Source: a virus (taxonomy: Duplodnaviria > Heunggongvirae > Uroviricota > Caudoviricetes). Taken from it: a stretch of 37,210 nt of DNA. The stretch covers positions 1 through 37,210 of the IMG/VR virus record IMGVR_UViG_2671180673_000011. One strand, 5' to 3'. A program made the translations under genes and the position numbers. The notes beneath the pieces were generated by a model that worked only from the letters and a program-made list of their open reading frames with translations, did not search any database and had not been told where the DNA came from. Positions 1-37,210 of the stretch are shown here, piece after piece; within the stretch, counting starts at the first letter, position 1, and each line of letters opens with the position of its first letter.

Positions 1-258
1 ATGCAAACCGTTATTTTTGGTCGTTCGGGTTGCCCTTACTGTGTGCGTGCAAAAGATCTGGCTGAGAAATTGAGCAATGAACGCGATGATTTTCAGTATC
101 AGTATGTAGATATTCGTGCGGAAGGGATCACTAAAGAAGATCTACAACAAAAGGCAGGTAAACCCGTAGAAACCGTGCCGCAGATTTTTGTCGATCAGCA
201 ACATATCGGCGGCTATACCGATTTTGCTGCATGGGTGAAAGAAAATCTGGACGCCTGA
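1..258 (+). CDS. grxA: glutaredoxin 1
   Basis: 85-aa ORF with CPYC thioredoxin-fold active site (GCPYCVRAK); length and sequence match E. coli GrxA as I recall it. Confidence 0.9.
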   Translation: MQTVIFGRSGCPYCVRAKDLAEKLSNERDDFQYQYVDIRAEGITKEDLQQKAGKPVETVPQIFVDQQHIGGYTDFAAWVKENLDA

Positions 259-287
259 TCGTCTGACAAGCCCTCGCGTTGAGGGCT

Positions 288-665
288 TTACTGATTTTTT
301 CTGTGCTGTGGTTTAAACAAACTACTGATAAATAAGAAACACAGTGCCCCCAGCGCACACCAGAACACCGCGCTTAGTAACCATGCCAGCTCTTGCCAGA
401 ATGAGCGCGTCGGTGAAAAAAACAGCCGCATAATGAGCATCGAACAGGGTGCCGCCAGCATTGCGCCAAACAGAGGTTTCAGGACTTCTCTACGCTGTGA
501 AAAGAAGCTGGCGACTGCTCCAGGAAGAATGAAAAATAGCAAGCCGATTTCAGGATGCCCGGCAGCCCGAAAAGCGCCTTTCATGTGCGTCGCCAGAAAA
601 AGGCACACCACAATGAAGAGGACAAAACAGCAGATTGCCCCCGCCCAACGTTGTTTATGTTTCAC
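288..665 (-). CDS. ybjM: inner membrane protein YbjM
   Basis: 125-aa strongly hydrophobic multi-TM ORF; position fits the conserved E. coli grxA-ybjM-ybjL neighbourhood. Confidence 0.75.
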   Translation of the reverse strand: MKHKQRWAGAICCFVLFIVVCLFLATHMKGAFRAAGHPEIGLLFFILPGAVASFFSQRREVLKPLFGAMLAAPCSMLIMRLFFSPTRSFWQELAWLLSAVFWCALGALCFLFISSLFKPQHRKNQ

Positions 666-934
666 TCGTTCCTCCTGACACTGCGTCTATCGAACACATT
701 TTTCGCCAGTGTGGCGTTCAGTAAGATAAAGCCGCTTCGCATTCCATGCTAATATAGGCCAACGCAATTCATATAGCCGTTGATACCTAATGTGATTACA
801 CTAGTAAAATATATTGTTACTTTACTATCGTTTAGGTGCGCTGAATGAATCTGCGCCCTGAATTCTGGTAAAAAACATTATCGTAAATTACCATTTCTTT
901 CAACAGCTTACTAGTAAACAAGAAGTTAGCCTCC

Positions 935-2620
935 GTGAATATAAACGTCGCCGAATTGTTAAATGGGAATTACATTCTGTTATTATTTGTGGTCCTCGCG
1001 CTTGGGCTATGTCTCGGAAAGTTACGACTTGGTTCGATCCAACTGGGTAATTCCATTGGCGTTTTAGTCGTATCGCTGTTATTAGGCCAACAACATTTCA
1101 GCATTAACACCGATGCGCTTAATCTTGGCTTTATGCTGTTTATTTTCTGCGTCGGGGTCGAAGCCGGACCGAACTTTTTTTCCATTTTTTTTCGCGATGG
1201 GAAAAATTACCTAATGTTAGCACTGGTGATGGTTGGCAGTGCGCTGGTGATCGCCTTAGGGTTAGGTAAGCTGTTTGGCTGGGATATTGGCCTGACGGCC
1301 GGTATGTTAGCAGGCTCTATGACGTCGACACCGGTTCTGGTCGGTGCTGGCGATACACTGCGTCATTCCGGCATGGAAAGCAGGCAGCTCTCACTGGCAC
1401 TGGATAATCTGAGCCTCGGGTATGCCTTAACCTATTTAATCGGTCTGGTGAGTTTGATTGTTGGTGCGCGTTACTTGCCGAAATTGCAGCATCAGGACTT
1501 ACAGACCAGCGCCCAGCAAATCGCCCGCGAACGTGGCCTGGACACTGATGCCAACCGTAAGGTTTATTTACCGGTGATCCGCGCCTATCGCGTCGGCCCG
1601 GAACTGGTGGCCTGGACCGACGGCAAAAATCTGCGTGAACTGGGTATTTATCGACAAACCGGCTGCTACATTGAACGTATTCGACGTAACGGGATTCTGG
1701 CAAATCCAGACGGTGATGCCGTGCTACAAATGGGCGATGAAATAGCGTTGGTAGGCTATCCCGACGCCCATGCCCGACTCGATCCCAGCTTCCGTAACGG
1801 TAAAGAAGTTTTCGATCGTGACCTTCTCGACATGCGTATCGTCACTGAAGAAGTGGTCGTTAAAAACCATAACGCTGTAGGTAAACGTCTCGCACAACTG
1901 AAGTTGACCGATCACGGTTGCTTCCTTAACCGCGTCATTCGTAGCCAGATTGAGATGCCGATAGATGACAACGTCGTGCTTAACAAAGGTGACGTTTTAC
2001 AAGTCAGCGGCGATGCCCGCCGCGTAAAAACCATCGCCGATCGCATCGGCTTTATCTCGATTCACAGCCAGGTCACTGACCTGCTGGCATTCTGCGCCTT
2101 CTTTGTTATTGGGCTGATGATCGGGATGATCACCTTCCAGTTCAGCACATTCAGTTTCGGCATGGGGAACGCTGCCGGGTTGTTATTCGCCGGAATTATG
2201 CTGGGCTTTATGCGTGCTAACCACCCGACCTTCGGTTACATTCCGCAGGGTGCATTAAGCATGGTGAAAGAGTTCGGCTTGATGGTGTTTATGGCAGGCG
2301 TTGGTCTGAGCGCCGGTAGCGGTATTAATAACGGCCTGGGCGCGATTGGCGGTCAGATGTTGATTGCCGGATTGATTGTCAGTCTGGTGCCCGTGGTTAT
2401 CTGTTTCTTGTTCGGTGCTTATGTATTGCGAATGAACCGCGCGCTGTTGTTCGGCGCAATGATGGGCGCACGTACCTGCGCGCCGGCAATGGAGATCATC
2501 AGTGATACAGCTCGCAGTAACATCCCGGCGCTGGGCTATGCGGGCACCTATGCAATCGCCAACGTCCTGCTGACGCTGGCAGGGACAATCATCGTCATGG
2601 TATGGCCAGGATTAGGATAA
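935..2620 (+). CDS. ybjL: putative AAE-family transporter YbjL
   Basis: 561-aa ORF with GTG start; two hydrophobic membrane halves flanking a soluble central region; matches E. coli YbjL length and synteny. Confidence 0.85.
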
Positions 2621-2732
2621 AACTGAAGTTGCCCTGAAAATGAAATTTTTTTGCACAACCGCAGAACTTTTCCGCAGGGCATCAGTCTTAATTAGTGCCA
2701 CTGCTTTTCTTTGATGTCCCCATTTTGTGGAG

Positions 2733-2776
2733 CCCATCAACCCCGCCATTTCGGTTCAAGGTTGATGGGTTTTTTG
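2733..2776 (+). terminator. rho-independent terminator
   Basis: Perfect 10-bp stem CCCATCAACC (2733-2742) / GGTTGATGGG (2760-2769) followed by TTTTTTG, about 110 nt downstream of ybjL. Confidence 0.5.
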
Positions 2777-2855
2777 TTGCCTGAAATTTATGCCTTTTAA
2801 AATCATGATGTTAGAAGCACTGTTTTTTATCGATGGCGACAAAATGGCGGCAGCG

Positions 2856-3074
2856 TCAAAGAGAGAGCGCCACCTGTCCTGATTTCATTGGATGCGGCTG
2901 AACCGGATTTGACTCTTTTGGCGTTGCAATCGAACGAACAAAAGTTTCATGGGTAACAAAAGTATGGCTGCAGTTAATATTCTGGCACTGGTTGTAACGC
3001 TCTTTGGTCAATGAAGATACCTGAAAACTGCTGCGAGTATGGGCGGCACTTCCACACAGTGGGCAAATCATCAT
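2856..3074 (-). CDS. ogr: Ogr/Delta-family zinc-finger late-gene activator
   Basis: 72-aa product from the internal ATG (MICPLCGSAAHTRSS...KERYNQCQNINCSHTF) with the Cys4 pattern and length of P2 Ogr; the track ORF extends 11 codons upstream. Confidence 0.85.
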   Translation of the reverse strand: MMICPLCGSAAHTRSSFQVSSLTKERYNQCQNINCSHTFVTHETFVRSIATPKESNPVQPHPMKSGQVALSL

Positions 3075-3164
3075 TTTTCGAGTTCTCCCCATTTTTGCTA
3101 AATTCACAATAATGATACCGCATTATTCCATTTTGCAAACTTAAAAGTTCTCCATTGCGAAGAA

Positions 3165-4265
3165 TCATTCCATTTCGAAATCATCAATCCTCACTTCAAG
3201 CTCCAGACTGGTCGTAAAACCGTTATCCGGGCTGACGGTATGCGTCAGAGTCGTAATGGTCCATTCCGCATCATCTATCGGCTGTTTAAAGCCACTGACT
3301 TTCACTGGCATTTCCGTGTAGAGATCTGCCCGACCTTCCGCCAGTTGTAGCGAGAATGACGCAACGCCGCGTTGCAGGCGTTCCCACTGCATTTTCGCCG
3401 CTCGTTCGGCGTTGCTCCGGTTGGCATAAGTGCGATTAAGTACCAGCACGTTTTCATCCGTACCCACCAGGTAATCGCCCTGCTTCGCTTCCGGCTCTTT
3501 CTTCTGCTTCTTAGTCCTGCGCTTACGCTTCACCGTGGTGCTTTCTTTCTTCGAGGGTTCGCGAGTATGCAACCAGCTGGCAATTACGCCCGTGTAAGCT
3601 CCGCGATCTGCCAGGGTAAAGCGGTGACTGTCGCCGTCCTTACGTGTGATAGTGATCACCGGCAGTGGTTTACCGCTGGCACTTTTACCCTGTCCCTGTC
3701 GGATGAATAACAGATTGCCATTTTTCACTGACGCGATAGCACCGTACTGGCGCGCCAGCCGCATCAGAAAACTGCCGTCACTCTCATTAGTCTGGTCTAT
3801 ATGTTCCACGGGCTTATCCGACAGGTCTTTACCCAGTGCCATCTTCAGCTTGTGACGCGCGGCTATTTCCTTGACCACTTCCCCGACAGTGGTCTTGTGC
3901 CACGACTTTTCACGGCGGGTATTCAGCGTCTCACGAAAATCAGCACTTCGCGCCCGAATAGTCAGGCGGTCCGGTGCGCCAGTGTGTTCAATCTCGTCCA
4001 CCGTGAATGCCCCTTTCGGGAAAAGCGGCTGCCCCTTCCAGCCCAGCGCCAGCGTAATGACCGCACCACGGCGCGGCAGCACGATTTTTCCGTCAGCGTC
4101 GTCCAGCTCCAGATCAAGCTGGTCCGCTTCAAAGCCCCGGTTATCCGTCAGCGTAAGCCCCATCAGGCGGTTGTCCAGCACAGTGGTTATATCCCTGCCC
4201 TCAATACTGATGCTGAATGCGGGAGTTTTGTTGCCTTTGTTAAGCAGTTCAGAGCTGAAATTCAC
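3165..4265 (-). CDS. D: tail protein D
   Basis: 366 aa; N-terminus MNFSSELLNKGNKTPAFSISIEGRDIT closely parallels P2 gpD; lysine-rich central linker. Confidence 0.85.
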   Translation of the reverse strand: MNFSSELLNKGNKTPAFSISIEGRDITTVLDNRLMGLTLTDNRGFEADQLDLELDDADGKIVLPRRGAVITLALGWKGQPLFPKGAFTVDEIEHTGAPDRLTIRARSADFRETLNTRREKSWHKTTVGEVVKEIAARHKLKMALGKDLSDKPVEHIDQTNESDGSFLMRLARQYGAIASVKNGNLLFIRQGQGKSASGKPLPVITITRKDGDSHRFTLADRGAYTGVIASWLHTREPSKKESTTVKRKRRTKKQKKEPEAKQGDYLVGTDENVLVLNRTYANRSNAERAAKMQWERLQRGVASFSLQLAEGRADLYTEMPVKVSGFKQPIDDAEWTITTLTHTVSPDNGFTTSLELEVRIDDFEME

Positions 4266-4747
4266 GACAGCAGCCCTCCCACCGTTTTACTGATATCGCT
4301 TAAAGCAGATGTTGCCGTTTCCTGCAGATTATTCAGTTGCGCACTGAGATCACCGAACATATCGGACAGGGATTCATCCACCCGTTTGAGCGACAGGGTG
4401 AACTCAATCCGGCGCGGCATACCGTCGCGGAAAAACTCCGTTTTAGTCTGATTCAGTCCCTCAATCACATACATGCCGTAAATCGTGCCGCTGCCTTCAA
4501 TCAGGGGCCATGCTTTCCCCTGTTCTGCCATCTGCTCCAGTGCCAGCAACGACAGCCTGCCGCCTGTTATCTCCGGCATAAGAACACCGGAAAGCGTCAG
4601 CATGTCGTTTTCCGGTCCCAGAAACTGCGTGGACGGACGTCGGTTTACCCGGCTGTTTGCCGCATGTCGCCAGCTGCGTTGATACTGCAGTTCCTGATAC
4701 GGCACGGTGCGCAGCATAAACACGTACAATCCCAGCACCATCATCAT
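4262..4747 (-). CDS. U: tail protein U
   Basis: 161 aa, MMMVLGLYVFMLRTVPYQ start resembling P2 gpU; 4-nt overlap with D. Confidence 0.85.
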   Translation of the reverse strand: MMMVLGLYVFMLRTVPYQELQYQRSWRHAANSRVNRRPSTQFLGPENDMLTLSGVLMPEITGGRLSLLALEQMAEQGKAWPLIEGSGTIYGMYVIEGLNQTKTEFFRDGMPRRIEFTLSLKRVDESLSDMFGDLSAQLNNLQETATSALSDISKTVGGLLS

Positions 4748-7700
4748 GCGTCGTATCCCCCCTGATCGCTGTAGTTACTCCTGGCTTTTGCCTTCAGCCT
4801 GCGTTCACGTTCATCAAGCTGGCGTGCCACCTCCCGCGCAATATCCTGCGCACTTTGTCCTGGCTGCGTCTGAATGATGATCTGCGTCGGTGCCTCAATC
4901 CGGTGAACGGGCGGCACAGTGGCTGCACGACTCACCATCGCTTCGCCGCCTTTCGCGGGAAGTGCCAAAGGATGCAACGGTGGAAGCTCTGCAGGCGCGG
5001 CAGCAACGCCCATCATTCCGGCAACAACGGCAGCCAGTGCAGCTGTATTTCTCCGGCTGGTCACATTTGCCGGGCCGTTAACAATTTCCGGCCCGTTTTC
5101 ACCGACGATGCCAAACTGCCCGCGCGGGATATAGCCGCCGCTGTCATACATCCCCGCAAAGCCATATCCCCATGACGGAAAACCACCCGATGGCATCATC
5201 ACTTTACCGTCTGCATTCACCGTCGCAGGTTGCTGACGCGTCACTCTTTCCGGCAGTTTCGCCTTTGCAGCCTCTTTACTGACAATGCCGAGTTTCTCCA
5301 GCAACCAGGAAACGCCGGATTTCAGGGAGTCCAGCGGATGCATGACCATATTCAGCCCTTCCGCCAGTGCCTCCCCGAATCGTCGCCCCATTGCCGCTGC
5401 GCTCTGCAGTTCGGCAGAGGTCGACTTAACGGGCGTCAGCAGATCAGTAAACCAGCCCCACAACGCCTGCACTTTGTCGCCAATCCACTGAAACACAGGC
5501 TTAAGTGGTTCGAATGCTGCACTGATGGGACCTGCCGCCGCTTTGAATCCTTCCACCACACCAGCGAGAAATGCGGTGATGGGTTGCCAGTATTTCCAGA
5601 CAACCAGCGCCACGCCCGCCAGTGCAGTAACCACAAGACCTATCGGACTGAGCAGAGCACCTAACAGACCAGATATGGCATACAGGGCAACGCGCAGCAT
5701 CGCCAGCGGACCGGATGCCAGTACTCGCAGCACCGCGCCTGCGGCAGCCAGTCCACCGCGTAGTGCTGCCAGTGGATTCATAAACATCACAGCAACAGCA
5801 CGTAAACCGGATAATCCAGACCGCAACAGTGCAACCGGCACACCTGCTACAGTTTTCAGGGCATTCCCCGTCAGTGATGCCGTGCGGCGCAAAGACGACA
5901 ACGGCGCAGTAAGTAAACCCGCTGCGTTGCCCGATGAAGCAAGCCCGCGTCGCAGCAGTGCCAGTGGAGCGCCAGCTAACCAAGACAACGCTCTGCTGGT
6001 TCGTGTTACTGCTGCCGTAACGGAAGGTAACGTTTTGATACCCAGCACAGAGAATCCCAGACGGATGACTGCCAGCGGCCCCAGCACTGCAGCCAGCGCC
6101 ACCGCTAAGGTGCCGAGGCCTACGGTAACCGCAGCCACAACAGCCGCTACTTTCATCAGTGTGCCTGTCAGTTCCGGGTTAGCTTCCACCCAGCGGCGCA
6201 ACGCCCCCGTGATGCTTTTCACCGTGTACAGAATATCCATCAGAGGCTGGCGCAGCGTTTCGCCCAGGCTGCTGAAGGTGTTCTGCGCTCCGGTTTTGAC
6301 CAGCAACCACTGAGCAGAAAGTGAGTCTTTGTTGATGTCGGATTCTTTCTGCATGGAACCGAGCGCATCATTGCCCGCTGTCAGTTTTAGCTGGCGCTGC
6401 AGTTCCGGAAGGTTGTTTGCCAGTTTCGCCGCGTCATCACCAAACTCTTTACCAAACAACATGGTCATGGCAGACAGACGCTTGTCCTGCGGCAGTGCGT
6501 TCACCTTCTCCAGCACACGCTGGATAGTTCCCATCGCATCCTTCGTCATCTGCTTTTCAATCACTTCAGGATTGAGTTTCAGCAGATTCATCCCTTCAAA
6601 GAAACTCTTGCTTTGCATGGTGGCAATGGACAATTCACGCACCATCGCGTTTGCTGCACTGGCTGCAACCTCCGGCGCAGCGCCCAGTGTCAGAAAGGTG
6701 GAACCCAGTGCCGCCGCTTTACGATAATCCAGACGGTCAGCCACACCGCCCAGACGTTGCATCACATCAATGATGTCCGCCCCTTTCGACATGGCATTAT
6801 CATCCAGATAGTTCAGCGCATCGCCGAGCTGTTCAATATTGCGGGTAGGTATTTTGTAGAGCTGGGCGATTTTCCCCAGACTTTCTGACAGTTCATCCGC
6901 TGGCAGCTCAAAGGCTGTTGCCGCCTTTGCTGCCGTACTGGCGAAGGCCAGCAGGTCACGTTTCTGGTCTTCCCAGCTGTCGTCAGGGTTTGCGACGTTC
7001 ATGCGCGCACCACCTTCAACCAGTGCAGCGAAGTCCACCGCACCGTTTTCCATCGGCAACTGTTCGCTGGCAGCCTTGATGGCATCCTGCATTTCATAAA
7101 AACGTGCAGTGCGGTTGCCATTATCGTCACGCAGACCATTGACCTGCTTTGCCACACCTTTCATGGCATCTTCCATGCTGGTATAGCTTTTTACTGCAGC
7201 CATCACTGGCGCACCCATTGCCAGCCCTGCAGCCGTGGTAGTGGCTCCGGCTCCTGCGATGCGATCGCGCACTTCAAGCCGTCTTGAGTATTGATCCCTG
7301 ACAGCGTTCATCCGTGCCTGTTGTTCACCCAGACGTTTAAGTGCTTTTTGCTGGCCCTCCAGTGCCTGCCTTGTTTCTTCAGCATTTTTCTTAAGTTCTC
7401 GCTGGGCACTACTGAGTTGTCTGGTATCAATCCCTGATTTTTTAAGTGCCTGACGTTGTCTCTGGACCGCCCCCAACAAGCCGTTATAGGTCTGCTGAAG
7501 TTCCTGTACTCGTGTTTTGGCCTGACTGAATAACTTTGCCTGTGCGGCGGTTGGCCTGTTAGTGGCAGCAAATTGTGTGGCGAGTTTTGCCGCCTCTTCG
7601 CGGGCTGCGTTCAGGTTGTTGGCTGTTATGGCTAGTTGCGAGCGCGTCTTGCGAAATTCATCAATTCTGCCAGCCTGCTTATTCAGTTCTTTGAGACTGT

Positions 7701-7821
7701 TTCGGGTATTCTGAATTGCGCCAGCCAGCTCTTTCGAACTGGCCTGTGCAGCACGGAATGGGCGGGTAAGTTTGTCAACCGCATTAAGAATGACCTGCAG
7801 CCGCAGGTTGTTATCACTCAT
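4744..7821 (-). CDS. T: tail tape measure protein
   Basis: 1025-aa ORF with N-terminal coiled-coil region and Ala/Gly-rich hydrophobic repeats, directly downstream of E/E' as in P2. Confidence 0.9.
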   Translation of the reverse strand: MSDNNLRLQVILNAVDKLTRPFRAAQASSKELAGAIQNTRNSLKELNKQAGRIDEFRKTRSQLAITANNLNAAREEAAKLATQFAATNRPTAAQAKLFSQAKTRVQELQQTYNGLLGAVQRQRQALKKSGIDTRQLSSAQRELKKNAEETRQALEGQQKALKRLGEQQARMNAVRDQYSRRLEVRDRIAGAGATTTAAGLAMGAPVMAAVKSYTSMEDAMKGVAKQVNGLRDDNGNRTARFYEMQDAIKAASEQLPMENGAVDFAALVEGGARMNVANPDDSWEDQKRDLLAFASTAAKAATAFELPADELSESLGKIAQLYKIPTRNIEQLGDALNYLDDNAMSKGADIIDVMQRLGGVADRLDYRKAAALGSTFLTLGAAPEVAASAANAMVRELSIATMQSKSFFEGMNLLKLNPEVIEKQMTKDAMGTIQRVLEKVNALPQDKRLSAMTMLFGKEFGDDAAKLANNLPELQRQLKLTAGNDALGSMQKESDINKDSLSAQWLLVKTGAQNTFSSLGETLRQPLMDILYTVKSITGALRRWVEANPELTGTLMKVAAVVAAVTVGLGTLAVALAAVLGPLAVIRLGFSVLGIKTLPSVTAAVTRTSRALSWLAGAPLALLRRGLASSGNAAGLLTAPLSSLRRTASLTGNALKTVAGVPVALLRSGLSGLRAVAVMFMNPLAALRGGLAAAGAVLRVLASGPLAMLRVALYAISGLLGALLSPIGLVVTALAGVALVVWKYWQPITAFLAGVVEGFKAAAGPISAAFEPLKPVFQWIGDKVQALWGWFTDLLTPVKSTSAELQSAAAMGRRFGEALAEGLNMVMHPLDSLKSGVSWLLEKLGIVSKEAAKAKLPERVTRQQPATVNADGKVMMPSGGFPSWGYGFAGMYDSGGYIPRGQFGIVGENGPEIVNGPANVTSRRNTAALAAVVAGMMGVAAAPAELPPLHPLALPAKGGEAMVSRAATVPPVHRIEAPTQIIIQTQPGQSAQDIAREVARQLDERERRLKAKARSNYSDQGGYDA

Positions 7822-8304: not shown

Positions 8305-8820
8305 TCAGAGGCCGAGGGCGTTGCGGTGCGCTTCCATCAGGTCCACACCGTCCACAATTTCCACCATGTTGATAAGGTCCACTTCATAGAGCACCTCACC
8401 ATTGATGGTCAGCTTCGCGTAGCTGTTGGTACTGGTCACTTTGGTGGTGTTGCTTTCGCCCGTCTTCCACTCGCCGGAATCCACTTCTTTGTGACGTCCA
8501 CGCACCACAAGCTCCACGGCCTGCACTTCCCCGGTATCGTCACGCTGGATAGAGCCGGTAAAGCGCAACTGGATGCCATCCACCGTGGATTTGCCCATCT
8601 GCTTAAACAGCAGCAGTTCGGTACCACCAATGGAAAATTCTGTATCCAGTGCACTGTCATCCAGTCCCAGATCCACATCCACCGCCCCCGGCATACCGCC
8701 GCCGCGATACTTCTCATATTTGCGGGTGAATTTCGGCAGCGTCAGCGACTCAACGATTCCCTGCCAGTTGTTCCCGTCGTTAAACAGGTTCAGATGTTTT
8801 AATTTGCGTGGTAAAGCCAT
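8305..8820 (-). CDS. FII: tail tube protein FII
   Basis: 171 aa; position and sequence character of P2 gpFII. Confidence 0.9.
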   Translation of the reverse strand: MALPRKLKHLNLFNDGNNWQGIVESLTLPKFTRKYEKYRGGGMPGAVDVDLGLDDSALDTEFSIGGTELLLFKQMGKSTVDGIQLRFTGSIQRDDTGEVQAVELVVRGRHKEVDSGEWKTGESNTTKVTSTNSYAKLTINGEVLYEVDLINMVEIVDGVDLMEAHRNALGL

Positions 8821-8829
8821 GTTGTCCCC

Positions 8830-10002
8830 TTACGCGCTGACCTGGCTTGCGAAATTCACCAGGTACTGATCGGTGATGCGCTGGCGCAGCATCAGATTTT
8901 CAAGTGGCGGCACTGGCGTGTAGTCGTAGTCGATGGTGAGTTTTCCGGCTTTAAGCGTGTCTTTGTCGTTCACCGACTCGTCCAGCCAGCAATCACCACC
9001 AATGAGATAGCCCTGACTGACCAGGCTGCGCATTTTGGCGCGGATACCTTCGATAATGTCGCGGGCCAGCGACGGGTTCAGCGGTTTGTCCACCGCCCAC
9101 ATGTGTGCTTCTGCCATCGTGTCCGTCAGCACCTGCGCCGTGCGGGTGTAGTTTTCGAAGGCAAAAAGCGGATCATCGCTCAGACAGCGGGAACCCCAGA
9201 AGCGGAAACCATCCTTGCGCACAAGCGTGGTGACGTCGTTCTGGTTCAGCAGACCTGCATCGGTTGCCGGGTCCTGCAGATCCCAGAACACATCAGCAGA
9301 AATTCCGGTGACACCGTTCACGCCCACGTTGGACAGGCTTTTGTGCCATCCGGTCTGCTCATCAATTTTGGAGCGCAGACCGAGCGCACGGGCGGTGGCA
9401 TAAGCCGTTGCTTCGGCATTCAGCACCGTGTCCCAGCCAGTAAAGTCGGGCCAGATCAGCATTCCTTCACGCTGACTGAAGTTTTCACGGTAAGTGATTG
9501 CTTCCTGCACCGTCTTGCAACCATACGCTGACAGGTAAGCAAACCCACGCAGGCTTTGCGCCACGCTCAGCAACTCAGTAGCTACCGCCTTCGTGTCGTG
9601 ACCTGGCACGCCGAGAATGCGCGGTTTAACGCCGAGCTGTGACTGGGCAGATAACAGAGCTTTCATGCCTGTTTTTTTACCTTCAGCAGTCACTGCGCCG
9701 ATGATATTGGTCGTGGTTTCTTCTTCCGTTTCACCCTGCGGCACACGCACAACAACGGTCACGGGTTTTGCCTGGTCAGCGATGGCATCCAGCGAACGGG
9801 CCAGCGTGCCGGACTCACCCGCTTTACCGCTGGCAGTCAGCACATCAGTGATCAGCACAGGTTTGTTAAGAGGAAACATTTTTGCATCGGCATCATCGCC
9901 CGTGCAGACCATGCCCACGATGGCGGTGCTCACCGTGGTAATGGATCGGGTGCCTTCGTTGACTTCAACAACGCGCACCCCGTGGTGGTAATCCTGAGCC
10001 AT
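8830..10002 (-). CDS. FI: contractile tail sheath protein FI
   Basis: 390 aa, [19 protein letters not shown] start typical of P2-type sheath. Confidence 0.9.
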
Positions 10003-10096: not shown

Positions 10097-10144
10097 AAAT
10101 GACGGTATTTGTCTACTTGCAGGGATAATCAAAATAATGCTGAT

Positions 10145-10711
10145 TCAGGGGGATTCATTACTCTTATTTGCCGGAAATTTTCTATAAATTGTGGAAACAC
10201 CCACATCAAAAATCAGTGCAATACGCTGTCTTGATTCTCCGGCCTCGAGTAAACGCCCAATCTGTGCCCACTGTTCGGTGGTCAACTTAGGACGGCGTCC
10301 ACCTACTCTGCCTTTGGCACGAGCTGCAGCCAGCCCTGCCCTGGTACGTTCAACTATCAGTTCGCGTTCCATTTCAGCCAGGGCACCCATGACATGAAAA
10401 AAGAAACGGCCCATTGGGGTACTGGTATCAATACTGTCAGTCAGGCTTCGGAAATTCACACCACGCTGGCGCAACTCCTCTATCAGCGTAACAAGATGCC
10501 GCATACTGCGCCCCAACCTGTCCAGCTTCCAGACAACCAGCGTGTCTCCTGCCGATAGTGTCCTGAGCAGCTTTTTCAGCCCCGGTCTGTCGGACTTAGT
10601 GCCACTGATTTTATCCTCAAAAATCCGCTCACATCCCGCGCAGTTCAGTGCATTACGTTGCAAATCGGTGTTCTGGTCATTTGTTGACACGCGTACATAG
10701 CCAATAAGCAT
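10145..10711 (-). CDS. serine-recombinase DNA invertase (Gin/Pin/Cin/Hin family)
   Basis: N-terminus MLIGYVRVSTNDQNTDLQRNAL from the internal ATG (GGGGG Shine-Dalgarno placed for ATG 10711); C-terminal HTH; adjacent to the tail-fibre inversion site. Confidence 0.9.
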   Translation of the reverse strand: MLIGYVRVSTNDQNTDLQRNALNCAGCERIFEDKISGTKSDRPGLKKLLRTLSAGDTLVVWKLDRLGRSMRHLVTLIEELRQRGVNFRSLTDSIDTSTPMGRFFFHVMGALAEMERELIVERTRAGLAAARAKGRVGGRRPKLTTEQWAQIGRLLEAGESRQRIALIFDVGVSTIYRKFPANKSNESP

Positions 10712-10738
10712 GATCATCCCCCTGAATAAAAACCGGAG

Positions 10739-11113
10739 ATGATGCCAGTTAGCCGTTATCTCTGCATTTTCATAAACGTTGGTTTGGGAGAAGCGGCAAA
10801 ACGAAATGTGGGAACAGGGGAAAATCAGATACCTGATATGTCATCATATGCATCAGGTTCAGGCTGGCGAAAAATGCCAGATGGTTCAATTGAACAGTGG
10901 GGACGAATTAGTTTTCCTGGTGAACACGGGCCTGTATCCGCCAATGTTTCATTCCCGATTCCATTTACACAGACACCGGGCATTGTAATTGTGTGCGATG
11001 GTGGTTTCGGGGGCGGGAATATGTGGGGGGCGACCAACTGGAGCACTACCGGCTTCATAGCTCACTGCAATTATGGTCTTGAAGGTGGTGCGTTTTTCGC
11101 TAAGGGCTGGTAA
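10739..11113 (+). CDS. alternative tail-fibre C-terminal variable domain (Sv'), silent orientation
   Basis: Frame open through the crossover site; from [18 protein letters not shown] onward it would fuse in frame to the H constant part after inversion; the upstream ATG is probably not a native start. Confidence 0.55.
10766..10791. promoter_or_regulatory. gix/hix-like inversion crossover site (invertase-proximal)
   Basis: TTTTCATAAACG-TT-GGTTTGGGAGAA: 26-bp two-fold site with AAAC..GGTTT core; inner 14 bp is an exact inverted repeat of 12640-12653. Confidence 0.6.
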
Positions 11114-11556
11114 TGATGAAATATCTGTACGTAAACAACCTGGCATATCCTTACGAACTTCAGTCTCTTTATGTTGAAAAAGGTGAATGGCCTGAAGAAA
11201 AAGGTGTTGATATAGACGAAGTAATTTTCAGGGAATATTTCTATGATACACCACCAGAAGGAAAATACAGATGTGTCGGAGAGGATGGACTGCCTGCATG
11301 GGCAGATATTCCTCCACCAACACGTAAAGAACAAATTGCATCAGCCGAAACTAAAAAGCAGCAATTGATTAACCAGGCCAACGAATACATCAACAGTAAA
11401 CAATGGCCAGGTAAAGCATCAATTGGTCGTCTGAAAGGTGAGGAACTGGCGCAATATAATTTGTGGCTGGATTATCTGGACGCACTGGAATTGGTCGATA
11501 CTTCCGGTGCGCCAGATATTGAATGGCCTACGCCTCCGGCAGTTCAGGCCAGATGA
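11113..11556 (+). CDS. tail-fibre assembly chaperone (alternative set)
   Basis: 147 aa; conserved C-terminal chaperone signature ...GAPDIEWPTPPAVQ paralleling the opposite-strand copy (...TAPDVIWPELPEA). Confidence 0.75.
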   Translation: MMKYLYVNNLAYPYELQSLYVEKGEWPEEKGVDIDEVIFREYFYDTPPEGKYRCVGEDGLPAWADIPPPTRKEQIASAETKKQQLINQANEYINSKQWPGKASIGRLKGEELAQYNLWLDYLDALELVDTSGAPDIEWPTPPAVQAR

Positions 11557-12121
11557 CGTCCGGCGCTGTGCTGGTATCTGTTGCCGTCACCGCGTCAATG
11601 TAACCCAGCACAGCGTTAAGTCGGGTGTTTTCTGGCTGCGTCAGCTTCCGCCCAGCCTGTAATTTCAGTTGAATCAGACTGATGGAAGCCATTGCAGCAT
11701 CAATCAGCGACTGGCGCTGTGCTTCTGCCGCTTCTACTGCGGCGCTATGCTGTGCCTCGGTATCCGTCACCCATTTCTCACCATCCCATTTATCGTATGG
11801 CGTTAACGGTGAAAGCGTGACATAACCGTCTTTGATGGCACCGATATAATCCACTGTAACAGCTGCGCCATTTTCAGTTGAGTAAACGGTCTCATTGCGA
11901 TGGTCTTCTTCATGGCTCCATCCCTTACCCGTAAATACTGCCACTTTTCCCGGGATGTTTTCGCCCGGGTCAATACCAGTGGAACAGGCGGGTATACTTA
12001 CGCCAGTATTAATATATTCATCAGACCAGCCAGTATATTCATACGTTACTGCATTATAATAAAAACAACGCATATCGCCCGGCACTGTAGCCAGCCCATT
12101 TTCATCAAAAACAGGTTTCAT
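11528..12121 (-). CDS. G: tail-fibre assembly chaperone G (expressed orientation)
   Basis: 197 aa directly downstream of H; Tfa-like C-terminus. Confidence 0.8.
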   Translation of the reverse strand: MKPVFDENGLATVPGDMRCFYYNAVTYEYTGWSDEYINTGVSIPACSTGIDPGENIPGKVAVFTGKGWSHEEDHRNETVYSTENGAAVTVDYIGAIKDGYVTLSPLTPYDKWDGEKWVTDTEAQHSAAVEAAEAQRQSLIDAAMASISLIQLKLQAGRKLTQPENTRLNAVLGYIDAVTATDTSTAPDVIWPELPEA

Positions 12122-13701
12122 TATTTAGCCCTCACCAGAAAGTTAAATGCAATATTTCGTGGACGGGTTTCTGTATCTACATTTCCACTAATTTCACCAT
12201 AACGTTTAACACTACGAGAGCTAAGAGCTCGTAGTGAGGAAGGCACCTTAAGACCGGGTTCGTCCGTTTTAACTATTCCCCCGTCACCGTATGTAGCCAG
12301 TATTCCTGGGTTTACTCCTTCCCGTGCACTTCCTGCGGCAAGCCCGTCCCCCGTCCACAATTCCATATTGTGTGCATGATCCATAATTGTGTGTGATTGC
12401 CCTGAAAGTAGGGTACGTCCGACATCAATCCCGCGCCCATCATCCCAGATACGAATGAAATCACCCCGTGCGTCAGGTAATGCTAGCGCCGGAAACACTT
12501 TCGCCAGCACAGGGTAATCAGTGGCAGAGAATTTCGCGCCGTTGAACTTCAAAAACACCATACTGGACCAACTGTCGATTACAGTATTTGGCATTGCGGC
12601 GGACGGCCAGAAGAACGGAACGCCAATAGCTGGAGCACCTTCTCCCAAACCAAGGTATGCGAGAAGACCAGCGACATCCTTTCCACTCAAATTAGTCAGC
12701 GTATTGTCCAGCGGTTGTTTACCTGCCAGCGCATTAAGCATTGTCGTGGCAAAGTTCGGATCATTCCCCAACGCCGACGCCAGTTCGTTCAGTGTATCCA
12801 GTGCCGCAGGTGCAGAACCTACCATTGCTGCAATCGCCGATTTCACAAAAGCCGTGGTGGCAATCTGTGTATTGTTGACCGACTGTGCAGCAGTGGGGGC
12901 TGTTGGCGTTCCGGTGAGTGCCGGACTCGACAACGGCGCTTTCAGTGCCAGCGCATTGTTAATGGTGGTACTGAAATTCGGATCATTGTTAATGGCTGCG
13001 GCTATTTCTTTCAGCGTGTCCAGCGTGGCTGGCGCACCATTAATAAGAGCCGTCAGTGCCGCCTGAACAAACGCGGTGGTCGCAACCTGCGTGGTGTTAT
13101 TCCCTGCCGCTGGAGTTGGCGCTTTTGGTGTCCCGGTAAACGTCGGACTTTCTTTGGGTGCATACTGTGAATGCGGGTCCGGTGCGGCAAGATGTTTTGC
13201 CATCTGATCATCCACGTACACCTTCAGCTCCAGTACCTTGTCATCCACATACTTGCGGGTTGCCAGCACTACGGCAGGGTCGATTTTCAGGGTGATATTG
13301 TCCGTGCTGCTGGTAATCAGCACCATGCGCACGGTCTGGGTACGCCCGCTGCCTTCAGCCAGTTGCGGCTTATAGCTTTCCGGGCAGTTGCCCACGGCAA
13401 TCAATGCCCCGGACTCATCAAACAGGCCCACTTCACGTATCCACCAACCGCCCTCGTTTTCAGGGATCACCTGTTCAGCAATAATCTGGCTGCTGTTCTG
13501 CGGGTCGATATAGAGCATATTCAGCGCAGCCCGGCGTTTCTCATTTACCAATGCTGTCTGCTTGGCGTCCGGCGTTGGCAATGTTCCGCCGCCATCGCCC
13601 ACCGCCATATGGGTAATTTTTAGCGGCACACCGAGCGCGGCGGCGCTGGCAAGTTTCGCCGCGCCAATATCCGTCAGCAGGGTATAAAATTTTGTGCTCA
13701 T
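12121..13701 (-). CDS. H: tail fibre protein H (constant N-terminal part plus current variable C-terminus)
   Basis: 526 aa; MSTKFYTLLTDIGAAKLASAAA...MAVGDGGG start like P2 gpH; crossover site embedded at codons LAYLGLGEG. Confidence 0.9.
   Translation of the reverse strand: MSTKFYTLLTDIGAAKLASAAALGVPLKITHMAVGDGGGTLPTPDAKQTALVNEKRRAALNMLYIDPQNSSQIIAEQVIPENEGGWWIREVGLFDESGALIAVGNCPESYKPQLAEGSGRTQTVRMVLITSSTDNITLKIDPAVVLATRKYVDDKVLELKVYVDDQMAKHLAAPDPHSQYAPKESPTFTGTPKAPTPAAGNNTTQVATTAFVQAALTALINGAPATLDTLKEIAAAINNDPNFSTTINNALALKAPLSSPALTGTPTAPTAAQSVNNTQIATTAFVKSAIAAMVGSAPAALDTLNELASALGNDPNFATTMLNALAGKQPLDNTLTNLSGKDVAGLLAYLGLGEGAPAIGVPFFWPSAAMPNTVIDSWSSMVFLKFNGAKFSATDYPVLAKVFPALALPDARGDFIRIWDDGRGIDVGRTLLSGQSHTIMDHAHNMELWTGDGLAAGSAREGVNPGILATYGDGGIVKTDEPGLKVPSSLRALSSRSVKRYGEISGNVDTETRPRNIAFNFLVRAK
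12640..12665. promoter_or_regulatory. gix/hix-like inversion crossover site inside H
   Basis: TTCTCCCAAACC-AA-GGTATGCGAGAA; its reverse complement shares TTGGTTTGGGAGAA with site 10778-10791. Confidence 0.6.
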
Positions 13702-14303
13702 GGATTCACTCTCATTGTGTCAATAACATGGACCGCCCCGCCTTCATGCGCGGTGCCGCCGGAAATAATTGTTTCGTTGATATACGGATAGATCGTGATT
13801 TCTTCGCCAAGATAGCTGGCGGCCCCCACCCAATGCGGACCGCTGGTCTGCAGATTGATGGACATGCCGATCATGTGACGGCTACATGGTTTGGCATCGC
13901 TTATCAGCCGCTCAAGTTCCAGATAGGTATCTTCAGTGATGCCCTGGTCCTGCACGCCGATATCCAGGCGAAACGTGCCCGGTGTTTCTCCGGTCTGCCA
14001 CCACTCAATAATGCGGATCAGGAATCCGAACGGTTCCACCACCCGCCGCACGGCACTGGTAGTTCCTTTATGCTGATGAATATAAAAAGCATCCTTCACT
14101 ACCTGGCGTTTGACGCTTTCTGTCCAGCCCTCGTCCCAGCGATCCACAGAGAACGCCCAGGCGAGATAAGGCAGGAAGCTGACCGGACAGGTAGCCGGAT
14201 TCCACAAGTCACGCAGCGGCACCTGCAGATCAGAAATCCCGCTACAGGTTTGCGCCAGTCGGCGCTCCAGTGAAGTTGAACCCGGTGGCAGCAGACTATT
14301 CAT
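13698..14303 (-). CDS. I: baseplate protein I
   Basis: 201 aa, position between J and H as in P2. Confidence 0.85.
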   Translation of the reverse strand: MNSLLPPGSTSLERRLAQTCSGISDLQVPLRDLWNPATCPVSFLPYLAWAFSVDRWDEGWTESVKRQVVKDAFYIHQHKGTTSAVRRVVEPFGFLIRIIEWWQTGETPGTFRLDIGVQDQGITEDTYLELERLISDAKPCSRHMIGMSINLQTSGPHWVGAASYLGEEITIYPYINETIISGGTAHEGGAVHVIDTMRVNP

Positions 14304-15204: not shown

Positions 15205-15550
15205 TCTCTGCTCCTGTTGATACGGAAAGGGAAACAGGCACACCGTTATTACGCCGCCCGGTCAGCTCCACCACCATTGAACCGTCAAAATTGCTGTTAA
15301 TGGTGATGGAATCCAGCGTCAGCCGTGGCTCCCAGCGACTCAGCGCCACATACACTGCCGACATGACCTGCAGGCGTAATGCCGGATTTTGTGGCTGGTC
15401 TATCAGTGCCGACAGCAGGGAACCATATTCCCGACGGGCAATGCGGCTACCCTGCGGCGTCAGCAAAATGTCCCGCACCGACTGGCGCAGATGATCAATA
15501 TCAGTAATGGCTTTACCGCTGGTATTGTTCATCCCGCTATAAAGCGTCAT
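15191..15550 (-). CDS. W: baseplate wedge protein W
   Basis: 119 aa; MTLYSGMN...RREYGSLLSALIDQPQNPALRLQ resembles P2 gpW. Confidence 0.85.
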   Translation of the reverse strand: MTLYSGMNNTSGKAITDIDHLRQSVRDILLTPQGSRIARREYGSLLSALIDQPQNPALRLQVMSAVYVALSRWEPRLTLDSITINSNFDGSMVVELTGRRNNGVPVSLSVSTGAENGSD

Positions 15551-16125
15551 ACCGGGCCTCCGGTTGTGTCGCCGCCTTTCAGGACGTCAGTATGCTGATG
15601 CGCATCAACCACGATCCCGTTAGAACTCATCGCTCCGCCGCCCTGGGTAACGCCACCATTGATCACCACTTCGCTGTTAATGCGCGTGCGGTCAGCCTCC
15701 AGTACAAACTCACTGGTTTTCATGGTGATGTTGTCAGCGGCCTCAATGACCATTGATTTGATGCCCCTGACATACCAGCGCCCGGTAGTGGGTTCGTATT
15801 CAAACCAGCCGCCGTCAGGATGTTCTGTCACGCAGGCGTCTGCCGACGTCGACGGTGGTGCGAACTGATTCGAATAGACAGCGGGCAGCGCAAAGGCAGT
15901 TTCCAGATTGCCGCCCAGACTCAGCAGCACCACCTGCTCACCTTCCGATGGTCGCCACCATGTGCGGGCATTCCCGGCACGCAGCGTCAGCCAGCTGATC
16001 CAGTTGGTTTCAAGCTCGCCCGTTTTCACCCGGCAAAGCCAGTTTTCCCGGTCCACTTCGGTGACTACACCAGTGCGGATCAGGTTGGTGATAAGGCGCA
16101 TGATTTCGGTTAGTTGTGCGTTCAT
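15547..16125 (-). CDS. V: baseplate spike protein V
   Basis: Start set at ATG 16125 (MNAQLTEIMRLITNLIRTGVVTEV) by alignment to the P2 gpV N-terminus; the track ORF extends 36 codons upstream. Confidence 0.8.
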   Translation of the reverse strand: MNAQLTEIMRLITNLIRTGVVTEVDRENWLCRVKTGELETNWISWLTLRAGNARTWWRPSEGEQVVLLSLGGNLETAFALPAVYSNQFAPPSTSADACVTEHPDGGWFEYEPTTGRWYVRGIKSMVIEAADNITMKTSEFVLEADRTRINSEVVINGGVTQGGGAMSSNGIVVDAHQHTDVLKGGDTTGGPV

Positions 16126-16171: not shown

Positions 16172-16189
16172 TGTGTGGTAAATGACACA
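16172..16189 (-). promoter_or_regulatory. candidate Ogr-binding late-promoter element (TGT-N12-ACA) upstream of V
   Basis: TGTGTGGTAAATGACACA in the V-upstream intergenic region, between V and the reverse-strand ORF. Confidence 0.3.
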
Positions 16190-16220
16190 AATACAATTCC
16201 AATCAAAGAAAGGTAAAAGA

Positions 16221-16751
16221 ATGAGCCATCCAATTGATTATTACGCTATAGAAGAACACGCAAGAATAATTGAGCAATTATGCTGTTCATCTGAATTTTA
16301 TTTACAGCGTATATATTCCACACAGAAAGTATATGATGGTTCTATAGTAACTGAATTTGAAATGGAGGAGTTATCGTACAACGGATGGTTGGAATATACC
16401 ATTAGCAACAATCTTATTAGCCTTTGTACAAAACTACGAATTCTCCAAGACACTAGTGAACATGAGTGGAACCCAGATTACTCACCTGAGAAAGAAGCAT
16501 TTGAAGAACATGAAAATATACTTTTTGTTATAGATGGTCATGTTAAAGATTCTATACGCGAATGCTGCAATAAAATTATTCACGCATTAAGTTTTGAGTT
16601 AACAAAAAAGACCGGCAAAAATGGAATAAAATATTGGGACGGTTCTATTATTGCTTCTGGGGTTCAAAACAAAAAAAACTGGAAAATTAAAATAGACCTT
16701 TTCCCTTTTTGCCAAAGCATAAAAAGTTATTTAAGTTTATTAAGAGCGTAA
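16221..16751 (+). CDS. hypothetical protein, accessory gene in the S/V slot (P2 orf30 position)
   Basis: AT-rich ORF opposite to the late operon; start chosen at ATG 16221 (AGGT 6 nt upstream); alternative start 16182; no recognisable motif. Confidence 0.55.
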   Translation: MSHPIDYYAIEEHARIIEQLCCSSEFYLQRIYSTQKVYDGSIVTEFEMEELSYNGWLEYTISNNLISLCTKLRILQDTSEHEWNPDYSPEKEAFEEHENILFVIDGHVKDSIRECCNKIIHALSFELTKKTGKNGIKYWDGSIIASGVQNKKNWKIKIDLFPFCQSIKSYLSLLRA

Positions 16752-25174: not shown

Positions 25175-25915
25175 TTACTCAATAGGTTCAAACTCATCTT
25201 GAGGAATCAGCGTCGATTGACAGGCTTGGCTTAGTACCCCTGATAATTTACATAATAACCGATAGTTATGAGGAGCATCATCGCTAATCTTTTCGACCGT
25301 TAAAGTGATTGATTTTGGATCATCCAATAACATCTTCTTGATGTCATTACTTAAATACCTAGGGCAGTAACCAACGATTTCAGCTGGTTTATCTGCACGA
25401 ACGACAACAGCATCCCCATCGTATTCATTTTGAAGATCCAAGCAAAGACGCAAAATTTGCCCCGGTTTCAATTCAGATACACGAGCATTAGCTAAGCTAT
25501 TCAAGTAACCAAGTCCATGTAAGAAGAAAAAATGCTCAAAGTTACCATCAGAATCAAAATCAATTTTTTTGAAAATCTGCAGCTGATCAGTGCTTCGTAA
25601 GCCTCCCGAGCGAGCAAGAATATCGATAGGATTTACCTTATCTTCTTCAAATCCAAGCCATTTAATGAAACTCGGATACTCTGGACGTCTCGGTGATAAA
25701 AGGCGATTTTTAAAAAGAGGAAACAATTCTTCCGATACATAAGTTTCACGAACATCACTCATGCCGCTAAACTTTGTAAATTTAGAAGATTTAAGAGCAC
25801 CTTTGGTATACCTGAAAACATACCCCGATTTGCGCTCTTGCAAGTTACCAACAACATGCCAGTCTCTGGTATCTGGTGCCTGCCATGCGACGTAAACGGA
25901 GTTTGTATTAGTCAT
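25175..25915 (-). CDS. HipS-like / HIRAN-domain fusion protein (putative partner of the HipA-like kinase)
   Basis: N-terminal LFPLFKNRLLSP and DILARSGGL resemble HipA N-subdomain-1 (FFDNLLPDSP...); C-terminal LRLCLDLQNEYDGDAVVVRADKPAEIVGYCPRYL fits the HIRAN signature; ATGA overlap with the upstream kinase gene. Confidence 0.6.
   Translation of the reverse strand: MTNTNSVYVAWQAPDTRDWHVVGNLQERKSGYVFRYTKGALKSSKFTKFSGMSDVRETYVSEELFPLFKNRLLSPRRPEYPSFIKWLGFEEDKVNPIDILARSGGLRSTDQLQIFKKIDFDSDGNFEHFFFLHGLGYLNSLANARVSELKPGQILRLCLDLQNEYDGDAVVVRADKPAEIVGYCPRYLSNDIKKMLLDDPKSITLTVEKISDDAPHNYRLLCKLSGVLSQACQSTLIPQDEFEPIE

Positions 25916-36940: not shown

Positions 36941-37210
<270 letters not shown>

Follow-up and report, generated by a model that had tools for sequence, protein, structure and literature searches.

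The window, the whole 37,210-nucleotide stretch of viral DNA that was analysed, carries between its tail-fibre and tail-sheath genes a DNA invertase gene and, next to it, a segment that holds two sets of fibre tips and chaperones between two inverted crossover sites. The features of the locus are the following:

10145..10711, minus strand: DNA invertase gene of the Pin/Gin (Din) family, 188 aa
10627..10689, inside the 5' end of the invertase gene: candidate Fis-dependent recombinational enhancer
10767..10792: invertase-proximal 26-bp crossover site, TTTTCATAAACG TT GGTTTGGGAGAA, core at 10779-10780
10779..12653: putative invertible segment, 1,875 bp from core to core
10781..11113, plus strand: silent alternative fibre C-terminus, GLGE followed by 106 aa, with a gp53-like/YfdL-like tip
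11113..11556, plus strand: silent alternative tail-fibre assembly chaperone, 147 aa, TfaP-like
11528..12121, minus strand: tail-fibre assembly chaperone of the present orientation, in the G position, 197 aa, TfaE-like
12640..12665: H-internal 26-bp crossover site, TTCTCCCAAACC AA GGTATGCGAGAA, core at 12652-12653
12121..13701, minus strand: tail-fibre gene H in its present configuration, 526 aa

The surrounding genes follow the P2 order V-W-J-I-H-G / FI-FII-E-T-U-D and encode homologous proteins, with identities to those of P2 of 41% for V, 55% for W, 65% for J, 56% for I, 53% for the N-terminus of H, 68% for FI and 52% for FII. A gpA replication gene and portal and terminase genes, as expected of P2-like phages, are present, and Pfam matches to Tail_P2_I, Phage_GPD, Phage_GPA and a 186-type CI repressor were also found. 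Among deposited phages the closest is Cartapus, which is assigned to Peduoviridae. Judged by gene content and order, the element is a 186/Fels-2/P2-like (Peduoviridae) prophage, in which the module occupies the interval that holds fun(Z) in P2. A preliminary description made from the sequence had placed a serine invertase gene in the G/FI interval and described the H-G fibre module of P2 as fixed; both statements hold: P2 has H, G and then fun(Z), with no invertase in that interval. The prophage also carries two defence systems, PDC-M03 and PD-Lambda-1.

The invertase open reading frame spans 10145..10717 on the minus strand and opens with MIMLIGYVRVSTNDQ. Translation likely starts at the ATG at 10711 (MLIGY..., 188 aa), as in annotated identical copies, the ATG at 10717 being also possible. 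The protein matches the N-terminal catalytic domain Resolvase (PF00239, 2.3e-53) and the C-terminal helix-turn-helix HTH_7 (PF02796, 1.5e-15), as well as the "DNA invertase" family PHROG 125 (8.8e-101) and the Gin structures 3uj3/4m6f (E about 1e-92), whereas gamma-delta resolvase is a far weaker match (E 1e-34). It is 85.3% identical to e14 PinE, 74.5% identical to Mu Gin and 100% identical to the copies in phage Cartapus and in Escherichia coli 95-3322. The catalytic Ser9, in MLIGYVRVSTNDQ (a motif of the GYxRVST-DQ type), aligns identically to Gin, as do Arg7, Arg42 and the KLDRLGRS motif. Lys46, Lys47, Arg50, His106, Met114, Gln150, Arg153 and Leu154 are present too. His106 and Met114 are presumably the wild-type Gin residues at the positions of Fis-independent mutants, and the C-terminal trio (Q150, R153 and L154) was placed in Hin numbering through what we take to be the sequence of the Hin DNA-binding domain. 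In that numbering, which runs one ahead of the Gin type, K46, K47, R50, Q150, R153 and L154 correspond to K47, K/R48, K/R51, Q151, R154 and L155 of Hin, the residues conserved uniquely in the Fis/enhancer-dependent invertases (PMC3798978). The identity to PinE and Gin, Ser9 and the Fis-contact residues support the assignment of this recombinase to the DNA-invertase subclass.

Within the 5' end of the gene, two 15-bp candidate Fis cores (10675-10689 and 10627-10641) lie 48 bp apart from centre to centre. They agree with the degenerate motif GNNYRNNWNNYRNNC at 6-7 of its 7 specified positions; about 8 matches to it are expected by chance per 330 bp. A candidate pair is found at the same gene positions in Mu gin, in a region that is also constrained by the active-site codons. 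The centre of the proximal core is 97.5 bp from that of the left crossover site; the Hin enhancer is 65 bp long and about 100 bp from hixL (PMC3798978). Inversion at this locus may be Fis dependent, through the candidate enhancer.

The two crossover sites share the exact 14-mer TTGGTTTGGGAGAA, which occurs twice in the 37 kb, at 10779-10792 on the plus strand and at 12640-12653 on the minus strand, against a chance expectation of 0.23 matches even with up to two mismatches allowed. Each site agrees with the gix/hix half-site consensus TTNTCNNAAACC at 17 of 18 positions; the rest of the window contains no further site scoring above 13, and no site of 16 or more arose in 100 shuffles. Both have the same core dinucleotide, which reads TT in the direction of the fibre, and in both fibre frames the inner half-site encodes GLGE, at 12640-12651 (minus) and at 10781-10792 (plus). 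The proximal site matches the reverse complement of the e14 pinE-proximal site, TTCTCCCAAACCAACGTTTATGAAAA, at 26/26 positions, and the inner half of the window sites is identical to the published repeat of the e14 P segment, TTGGTTTGGGAGAAGG (PMC12529663). Both sites are kept in eight related prophage or phage loci, and the loci where they flank the cassettes include 95-3322, KOr024, Cartapus, KP12, 500465-2, "P2" T22 and 611R5; related P2-like loci of Escherichia and Klebsiella have the H-internal site at the corresponding position. These comparisons support the identification of both as gix/pix-type 26-mers of 12-2-12 architecture in inverted orientation. The preliminary description had recognized inverted gix-like sites bounding about 1.87 kb. 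Its right site (12640-12665) stands and its left site (10766-10791) has to be moved by one nucleotide, to 10767-10792; the exact inverted inner halves, the identical central dinucleotides and GLGE in the fibre frame at both sites are as it reported, and the alignment to the gix/hix consensus that it proposed agrees with it. Nor did the two sequence findings that it named as counting against a switch appear: the invertase gene is intact and the inverted repeat is conserved among relatives.

Between the sites lie two convergent sets, each of a fibre C-terminus and a chaperone, with all four reading frames intact and the two chaperone genes overlapping tail to tail by 29 bp. The constant part of H comprises residues 1-354, with GLGE at its end. 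Its N-terminal domain matches Phage_tail_fib (3.5e-65), and residues 1-332 are 53% identical to P2 H. The variable part, residues 355-526 (12121-12639), is a StfE-like tip (73/196 identical to e14 StfE) with a weak match to Collar (0.0015), and the 197-aa chaperone downstream matches Caudo_TAP (3.5e-27), PHROG 105 (1.1e-82) and e14 TfaE (125/200 identical). On the opposite strand, the silent fibre C-terminus matches Gp53-like_C (9.2e-08); lacking a credible start, it would be expressed only once the segment has inverted. The accompanying 147-aa chaperone matches Caudo_TAP (7.9e-33), PHROG 188 (1.6e-53) and e14 TfaP (63/126 identical). Inversion in silico changes H from 526 to 460 aa with the frame kept, replaces the 172 residues after GLGE with 106 and exchanges the 197-aa chaperone for the 147-aa one. 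The in-frame swap of tip and chaperone that had been suggested at the outset is thus borne out, and its size of about 170 residues applies to the expressed copy but not to the incoming one. The tips come from unrelated families (StfE-like and Gp53-like_C), which makes it likely that they recognize different receptors.

We consider it very probable that the region is a Din-family (Pin/Gin/Cin/Hin-type) inversion module in the tail-fibre region of a P2-like prophage, acting as a two-tip switch. In the proposed mechanism, dimers of the 188-aa serine invertase would bind both inverted 26-bp sites, cut the DNA at the 2-bp TT/AA cores, swap strands through subunit rotation and rejoin them. As the Hin and Gin systems suggest, this would probably take place within an invertasome assembled with Fis on the candidate enhancer in the 5' part of the invertase gene, and the 1,875-bp segment would flip. 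The late V-W-J-I-H operon would always encode H residues 1-354, with the tip set by the orientation: in the state seen in the window the 172-aa StfE-like tip followed by the 197-aa TfaE-like chaperone, and in the flipped state the 106-aa gp53/YfdL-like tip followed by the 147-aa TfaP-like chaperone. Provided that the two tips bind different receptors, as we infer, a population of lysogens would release virions of two receptor specificities, a form of host-range bet-hedging.

The predicted flipped form exists in a relative. In the prophage of E. coli 95-3322, the flanks align to the window in the forward direction at 98.1% and 99.1% identity and the segment aligns in reverse at 99.6%; only 10776-12653 is reversed, with the breakpoints inside the 14-bp repeat. 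The flipped junction constructed in silico is present there at 100% identity over 800 bp, and the 460-aa H predicted for the flipped state matches the annotated H of that prophage at 100% identity. In complete E. coli genomes, the right junction was found at a coverage of at least 80% in the flipped form in 11 and in the native form in 8. These comparisons indicate that the segment inverts, and the same would hold for the source strain itself. In 95-3322 the silent cassette contains five 1-bp indels, which, if real and not assembly errors, indicate that silent copies can decay.

An inverted repeat could also be inverted by RecA-mediated homologous recombination, the neighbouring recombinase gene being incidental, and such inversion between inverted repeats is known in E. 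coli (discussed in PMC4272514). We regard this as extremely improbable here: the exact repeat of 14-15 bp is far shorter than efficient RecA substrates, it has the architecture and sequence of Din-family 12-2-12 sites and adjoins a Pin orthologue, and the 95-3322 breakpoints fall exactly at the sites.

It is also unlikely that the module is a frozen relic, once invertible but no longer switching in this prophage, for instance because the invertase is unexpressed or the enhancer defective, with the opposite orientations elsewhere reflecting old events. The window is a single assembly with one orientation, and the enhancer is a candidate. Two independent LF82 assemblies in which the invertase and left site are identical also agree in orientation, but a minority form would not show up in a consensus assembly. 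Against such a loss of activity, the invertase is intact and has 100% identical copies in independent phages and prophages, both sites keep 17 of 18 consensus positions and identical cores, and the cassette genes are all open. The occurrence of the other orientation in a 98-99% identical prophage implies that the flip is recent on that scale of divergence. In addition, even a degraded P2-like remnant in enteropathogenic E. coli (EPEC) still inverts (PMC4272514).

A DNA-inversion switch in these elements is already known. The module is essentially the Pin/P-segment system of e14, and there are published reports of inversion in P2-like prophages (PMC4272514; PMC7953296 for Fels-2). In the e14 system of E. 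coli K-12 (pinE, stfP-tfaP / tfaE-stfE), besides the close invertase and the fully matching proximal site, the other site shares its inner half-site and TT core with that of the window, and the GLGE junction is alike. Two convergent tip/chaperone pairs whose chaperone 3' ends overlap, and TfaE-, TfaP- and StfE-like cassettes, are common to both. The e14 segment is 1,797 bp long, compared with 1,875 bp, and e14 is defective, its fibre gene being truncated and accompanied by pseudogenes, whereas the window has a complete P2/186-like late operon and a full-length H (526 or 460 aa), with one tip gp53/YfdL-like instead of StfP-like. The Mu Gin/G segment (S-U / U'-S') and the P1 Cin/C segment likewise have a constant fibre N-terminus and two variable C-termini on opposite strands, each with its cognate chaperone, an invertase gene just outside one site on the strand of the fibre gene, and 26-bp sites of the same half-site consensus. 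They are embedded in a Mu or P1 tail and backbone, however, and Mu has a TC/GA core in place of TT/AA and a 3-kb G segment with a 34-bp repeat, compared with 1.9 kb and a 14-bp exact repeat here. The characterization of the locus as Mu G-segment logic on a P2-type tail was thus apt, given its constant part, its two variable parts with chaperones and the P2 protein identities of 41-68%.

Closer in setting are the EPEC P2-like loci and the Fin system of Salmonella Fels-2, which have a P2-type tail, an invertase that separates the fibre genes from the sheath gene, and the same repeat as the window, TTGGTTTGGGAGAAG. In clonal cultures of EPEC E2348/69, both orientations were found together at e14 and at two P2-like prophages by whole-genome sequencing and PCR (Goldberg et al. 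2014, PMC4272514, Table S1), and for Fels-2 the two orientations appear in the comparison of LT2 with LT7 (PMC7953296, citing Kutsukake 2006). The EPEC locus has an invertase 77.7% identical to that of the window and a proximal site identical at 25/26 positions. The cassettes of EPEC and Fels-2 are different ones, the prophage at the EPEC locus compared here is truncated, and a second EPEC locus has three repeats and four states, in contrast to the simple two-state arrangement of the complete prophage described here. The same architecture, annotated with a "DNA invertase", is found in the deposited P2-like phages Cartapus (Peduoviridae, Elveevirus; an LF82 prophage), Klebsiella KP12 and Escherichia 500465-1 and 500465-2. 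The invertases of Cartapus, where it is annotated as a Gin homologue, and of KP12 are 100% and 99.5% identical to that of the window and the sites are the same, while the variable cassettes differ, a sign of mosaic exchange. A 2001 study, cited in PMC4272514, reportedly described a fibre gene of a contractile-tail tailocin in which DNA inversion alters the target range; the element is a tailocin and not a prophage, and the likeness to the window is one of described behaviour.

The likeness to e14 raises the question of whom the switch serves. Inversion of the e14 P segment, driven by PinQ, produces StfE2, which inhibits T2 adsorption (PMC12529663), and by the same token a chimeric prophage fibre that blocks the adsorption of other phages could be the main selected function here, benefiting the host. 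The window sites are identical to those of e14, the tip of the present orientation is StfE-like and the prophage carries defence cargo, but we hold this to be highly improbable: H is part of a complete late operon in an apparently intact prophage, where expression in the lysogen is not expected, and nothing in the sequence points to it. The late-operon position of H fits host-range switching of the virion. A function for the host is nevertheless compatible with a two-tip virion switch. By analogy with StfE2, the locus might additionally be used by the host in the lysogen, the fibre or tip of one orientation masking a receptor against other phages, which we think very unlikely, and it would then possibly be flipped in trans by the invertases of co-resident prophages, given the shared e14 sites.

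The stretch comprising the sheath-gene end, the invertase and the left site is found in 663 of the 5,426 complete E. coli genomes (about 12%), which, together with the named Peduoviridae phages and the published inversions, leaves the novelty implied by the preliminary description unsupported. The value of the finding lies mainly in annotation and practical use, not in discovery. Assemblies of such prophages catch an arbitrary orientation, and annotation of the silent cassette has yielded a free-standing or frameshifted "tail protein". A host range predicted from one H sequence leaves out half of the phage repertoire, and both tips and both chaperones have to be reckoned with when the prophage is induced or engineered. 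As the module is widespread and its sites are interchangeable with those of e14, cross-talk between the invertases of co-resident prophages is plausible.

The prophage, which runs from position ~3165 through to the window end, is nearly complete and P2/186/Fels-2-like, and the inversion region lies inside its late tail operon. The genes are arranged as follows:

~15547-16125, minus strand: V, followed by W and J
13698-14303, minus strand: I
12121-13701, minus strand: H, tail fibre
11528-12121, minus strand: chaperone in the G position
10145-10711, minus strand: invertase, between the G-position chaperone and FI
8830-10002, minus strand: FI sheath
8305-8820, minus strand: FII tube, with E next, before T
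4744-7821, minus strand: T tape measure, followed by U
3165-4265, minus strand: D

Identities to the P2 proteins are 41% (V), 55% (W), 65% (J), 56% (I), 53% (H, residues 1-332), 68% (FI) and 52% (FII). Phage P2 has fun(Z) and no recombinase between G and FI, so the contrast with the reference phage drawn in the preliminary description is right. In the chromosomal flank lies a gene for an Asp-Al_Ex/TrkA_C permease (935-2620, plus strand); the integrase end of the prophage is cut by the window edge at 37210, and no tRNA gene was found in the window.

The invertase gene encodes a 188-aa protein with a resolvase catalytic domain and an HTH_7 domain, which matches the Gin crystal-structure sequences (E about 1e-92) and is 85.3% identical to PinE of e14 and 74.5% identical to Mu Gin. 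The nucleophile Ser9 and its GYVRVSTNDQ motif are intact. Six residues are reported to be uniquely conserved in Fis/enhancer-dependent invertases (Hin K47, K/R48, K/R51, Q151, R154 and L155; McLean et al., PMC3798978), and all of them are found in this protein, as K46, K47, R50, Q150, R153 and L154.

There are just two exact copies of the 14-mer TTGGTTTGGGAGAA in the 37 kb, at 10779-10792 and, inverted, at 12640-12653; 0.23 matches would be expected by chance with up to two mismatches allowed. In the 26-bp format of the Din family, the two crossover sites are:

10767-10792, left, invertase-proximal site: TTTTCATAAACG-TT-GGTTTGGGAGAA
12640-12665, right, H-internal site: TTCTCCCAAACC-AA-GGTATGCGAGAA

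Their 2-bp cores are identical, and each site agrees with the half-site consensus TTNTCNNAAACC at 17 of 18 positions (16/18 for the Mu gix sites taken from NC_000929), while no other position in the window scored above 13 and none reached 16 in 100 shuffles. Of the two inverted gix-like sites proposed earlier, the left one had been placed one base off. Multi-state shuffling through extra crossover sites, as in one EPEC P2-like prophage, was considered and rejected, since only two sites in the window score 14 or more. The inner half-sites encode G-L-G-E both in the H frame (12640-12651, minus strand) and in the frame of the silent cassette, the fibre tip and chaperone not joined to H (10781-10792, plus strand). 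Among GTDB species representatives the exact left site was found at three Escherichia/Shigella loci only, a query too strict to indicate taxonomic breadth.

When the flipped sequence was constructed in silico, the H reading frame was kept. The constant part of H comprises 354 residues, ending in ...LAYLGLGE, and the present StfE-like tip of 172 residues is replaced by a gp53/YfdL-like tip of 106 residues, and H, now of 526 aa, would then have 460. The gene following H, now that of a 197-aa TfaE-like chaperone, becomes that of a 147-aa TfaP-like one; each of the two is an intact Caudo_TAP protein, and their genes are convergent with a 29-bp overlap. An 800-bp query spanning the flipped H junction is matched at 100% identity by E. 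coli 95-3322. The prophage of this strain aligns with the window in forward orientation at the left (98.1%) and right (99.1%) flanks, and with 10776-12653 in reverse (99.6%), the breakpoints falling inside the repeat. The H protein annotated there (WP_106873684.1, 460 aa) agrees at every residue with the H flipped in silico. The native orientation was seen in KOr024 and others, and among complete E. coli genomes, at a coverage of at least 80%, the flipped right junction was found in 11 and the native one in 8. Two independent assemblies of LF82, with identical invertase and left site, show the same orientation, which has no bearing either way. The inversion feature is real, intact and almost certainly functional; the earlier interpretation as a Gin/Pin-type fibre switch in a P2-family prophage is correct.

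The silent cassette of the 95-3322 locus (4492-5651), which corresponds to the expressed tip and chaperone of the window, contains five 1-bp indels, of which four lie within runs of G or C, and is annotated as frameshifted in RefSeq. Their cause is either an error of the long-read assembly or the decay of the unexpressed copy.

The same two sites surround differing cassette pairs in seven related loci (95-3322, KOr024, phage Cartapus, Klebsiella phage KP12, 500465-2, "P2" from O157:H43 T22 and vB_EcoM-611R5). The invertase of KP12 is 99.5% identical to that of the window, and the one of Cartapus, annotated as "Mu phage Gin invertase homolog", is 100% identical. The region that begins at the end of FI, takes in the invertase and reaches to the left site was found, at a coverage of at least 80%, in 663 of 5,426 complete E. 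coli genomes.

Hin and Gin follow an established Din-family pathway (PMC3798978). If it holds here, invertase dimers bound to both sites would join a Fis-bound enhancer, cut the cores via phosphoserine links, turn by 180 degrees and rejoin the strands. A strict Fis motif search for the enhancer found nothing. A looser, degenerate consensus gave a statistically weak candidate at 10627-10689, with two Fis-consensus-like 15-mers 48 bp apart, the nearer of which is separated from the left site by 97.5 bp. The pair lies in DNA that codes for the active site, and Mu gin has it at corresponding places in the gene. The geometry of this putative enhancer fits the published one, of 65 bp at about 100 bp from hixL (PMC3798978).

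The invertase ORF is exactly flanked by the two 12-nt arms of a perfect inverted repeat (10143-10154 and 10716-10727; ATTCAGGGGGAT and ATCCCCCTGAAT), through which its Shine-Dalgarno and stop regions pair. Roles of this repeat in mRNA autoregulation or as a mobile-cassette boundary were rejected: chance alone predicts about 0.5 such pairs over the 3.9 kb scanned, KOr024 has the repeat broken with no compensating change, and pinE, gin and 500465-2 lack it. It is probably due to chance. Between the left site and the invertase start there is a terminator-like hairpin followed by a T-run (10731-10750, minus strand), whose motif TGGCATCAT...TTTT is also recognisable upstream of pinE and gin; it may shield the invertase from late-operon read-through. 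The promoter part of the promoter/terminator scan of this region performed no better than shuffles.

Outside the inversion region, the following genes were noted:

25912-26826, minus strand: HipA_C-like protein
25175-25915, minus strand: HIRAN-domain protein
34355-36031, plus strand: 558-aa DUF4041 and T5orf172/MUG113 protein, matching the defence protein PD-Lambda-1 (1.4e-119)
16182-16751, plus strand: 189-aa ORF, full-length match to PHROG 18838, unknown function (6e-136)
30160-30990, minus strand: 276-aa protein adjoining gpA, PHROG 887 "queuine tRNA-ribosyltransferase" (6.5e-96)

The first two form a two-gene cargo (25175-26826) in the hotspot equivalent to tin/old, between portal Q and gpA, and correspond to PDC-M03A (2e-122) and PDC-M03B (7e-93) of a candidate defence system in PADLOC. 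The PD-Lambda-1-like gene lies between those of the CI repressor (33738-34334) and the integrase (from 36115, cut at the window end). The 189-aa ORF takes the place of P2 orf30, immediately upstream of V and on the strand opposite to it, and gave no match in Pfam or PADLOC; it is found in 95-3322 and Cartapus and is absent from KOr024. The 276-aa protein has no Pfam match and may be a DpdA-like DNA-modification enzyme.

Of known systems, the one that the inversion system matches most closely is the Pin/P-segment module carried by e14 of E. coli K-12. Read as its reverse complement, the e14 site next to pinE, TTCTCCCAAACCAACGTTTATGAAAA, equals the left site at every base, and the second e14 site has its core and inner half in common with the window. 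The GLGE fibre junction is the same, the cassettes of the window include homologues of the e14 proteins TfaE, TfaP and StfE, and the published e14 repeat TTGGTTTGGGAGAAGG (PMC12529663) is that of the window. Paired-end sequencing and PCR have revealed both orientations coexisting in clonal cultures, for e14 (51% forward) as well as for two P2-like prophages of EPEC E2348/69, the simple one being 93% forward (Goldberg et al., PMC4272514, Table S1). Compared with the window, this simple locus has a proximal site identical at 25 of 26 positions and an invertase of 77.7% identity. The distal site of the EPEC P2-like remnant (4069-4094 of its locus), which adjoins an integrase fragment, has just its core and inner half left, TTCTTCTTTCCC-TT-GGTTTGGGAGAA. 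Yet the remnant inverts experimentally, with the flipped form in about 7% of cells (PMC4272514), which suggests that a degenerate outer half-site is tolerated or that other invertases assist.

Fels-2, a P2-like Salmonella prophage, carries the Fin invertase and a fibre segment whose orientation differs between LT2 and LT7 (PMC7953296), and a 2024 preprint on P2-like hotspots describes a DNA invertase often located at the Z/fun locus, with adjacent genes inverting (10.1101/2024.10.15.618418). Given these precedents, together with e14 and EPEC, the arrangement in the window is already described, both by experiment and by database annotation. The system is of a textbook kind, found in a common context.
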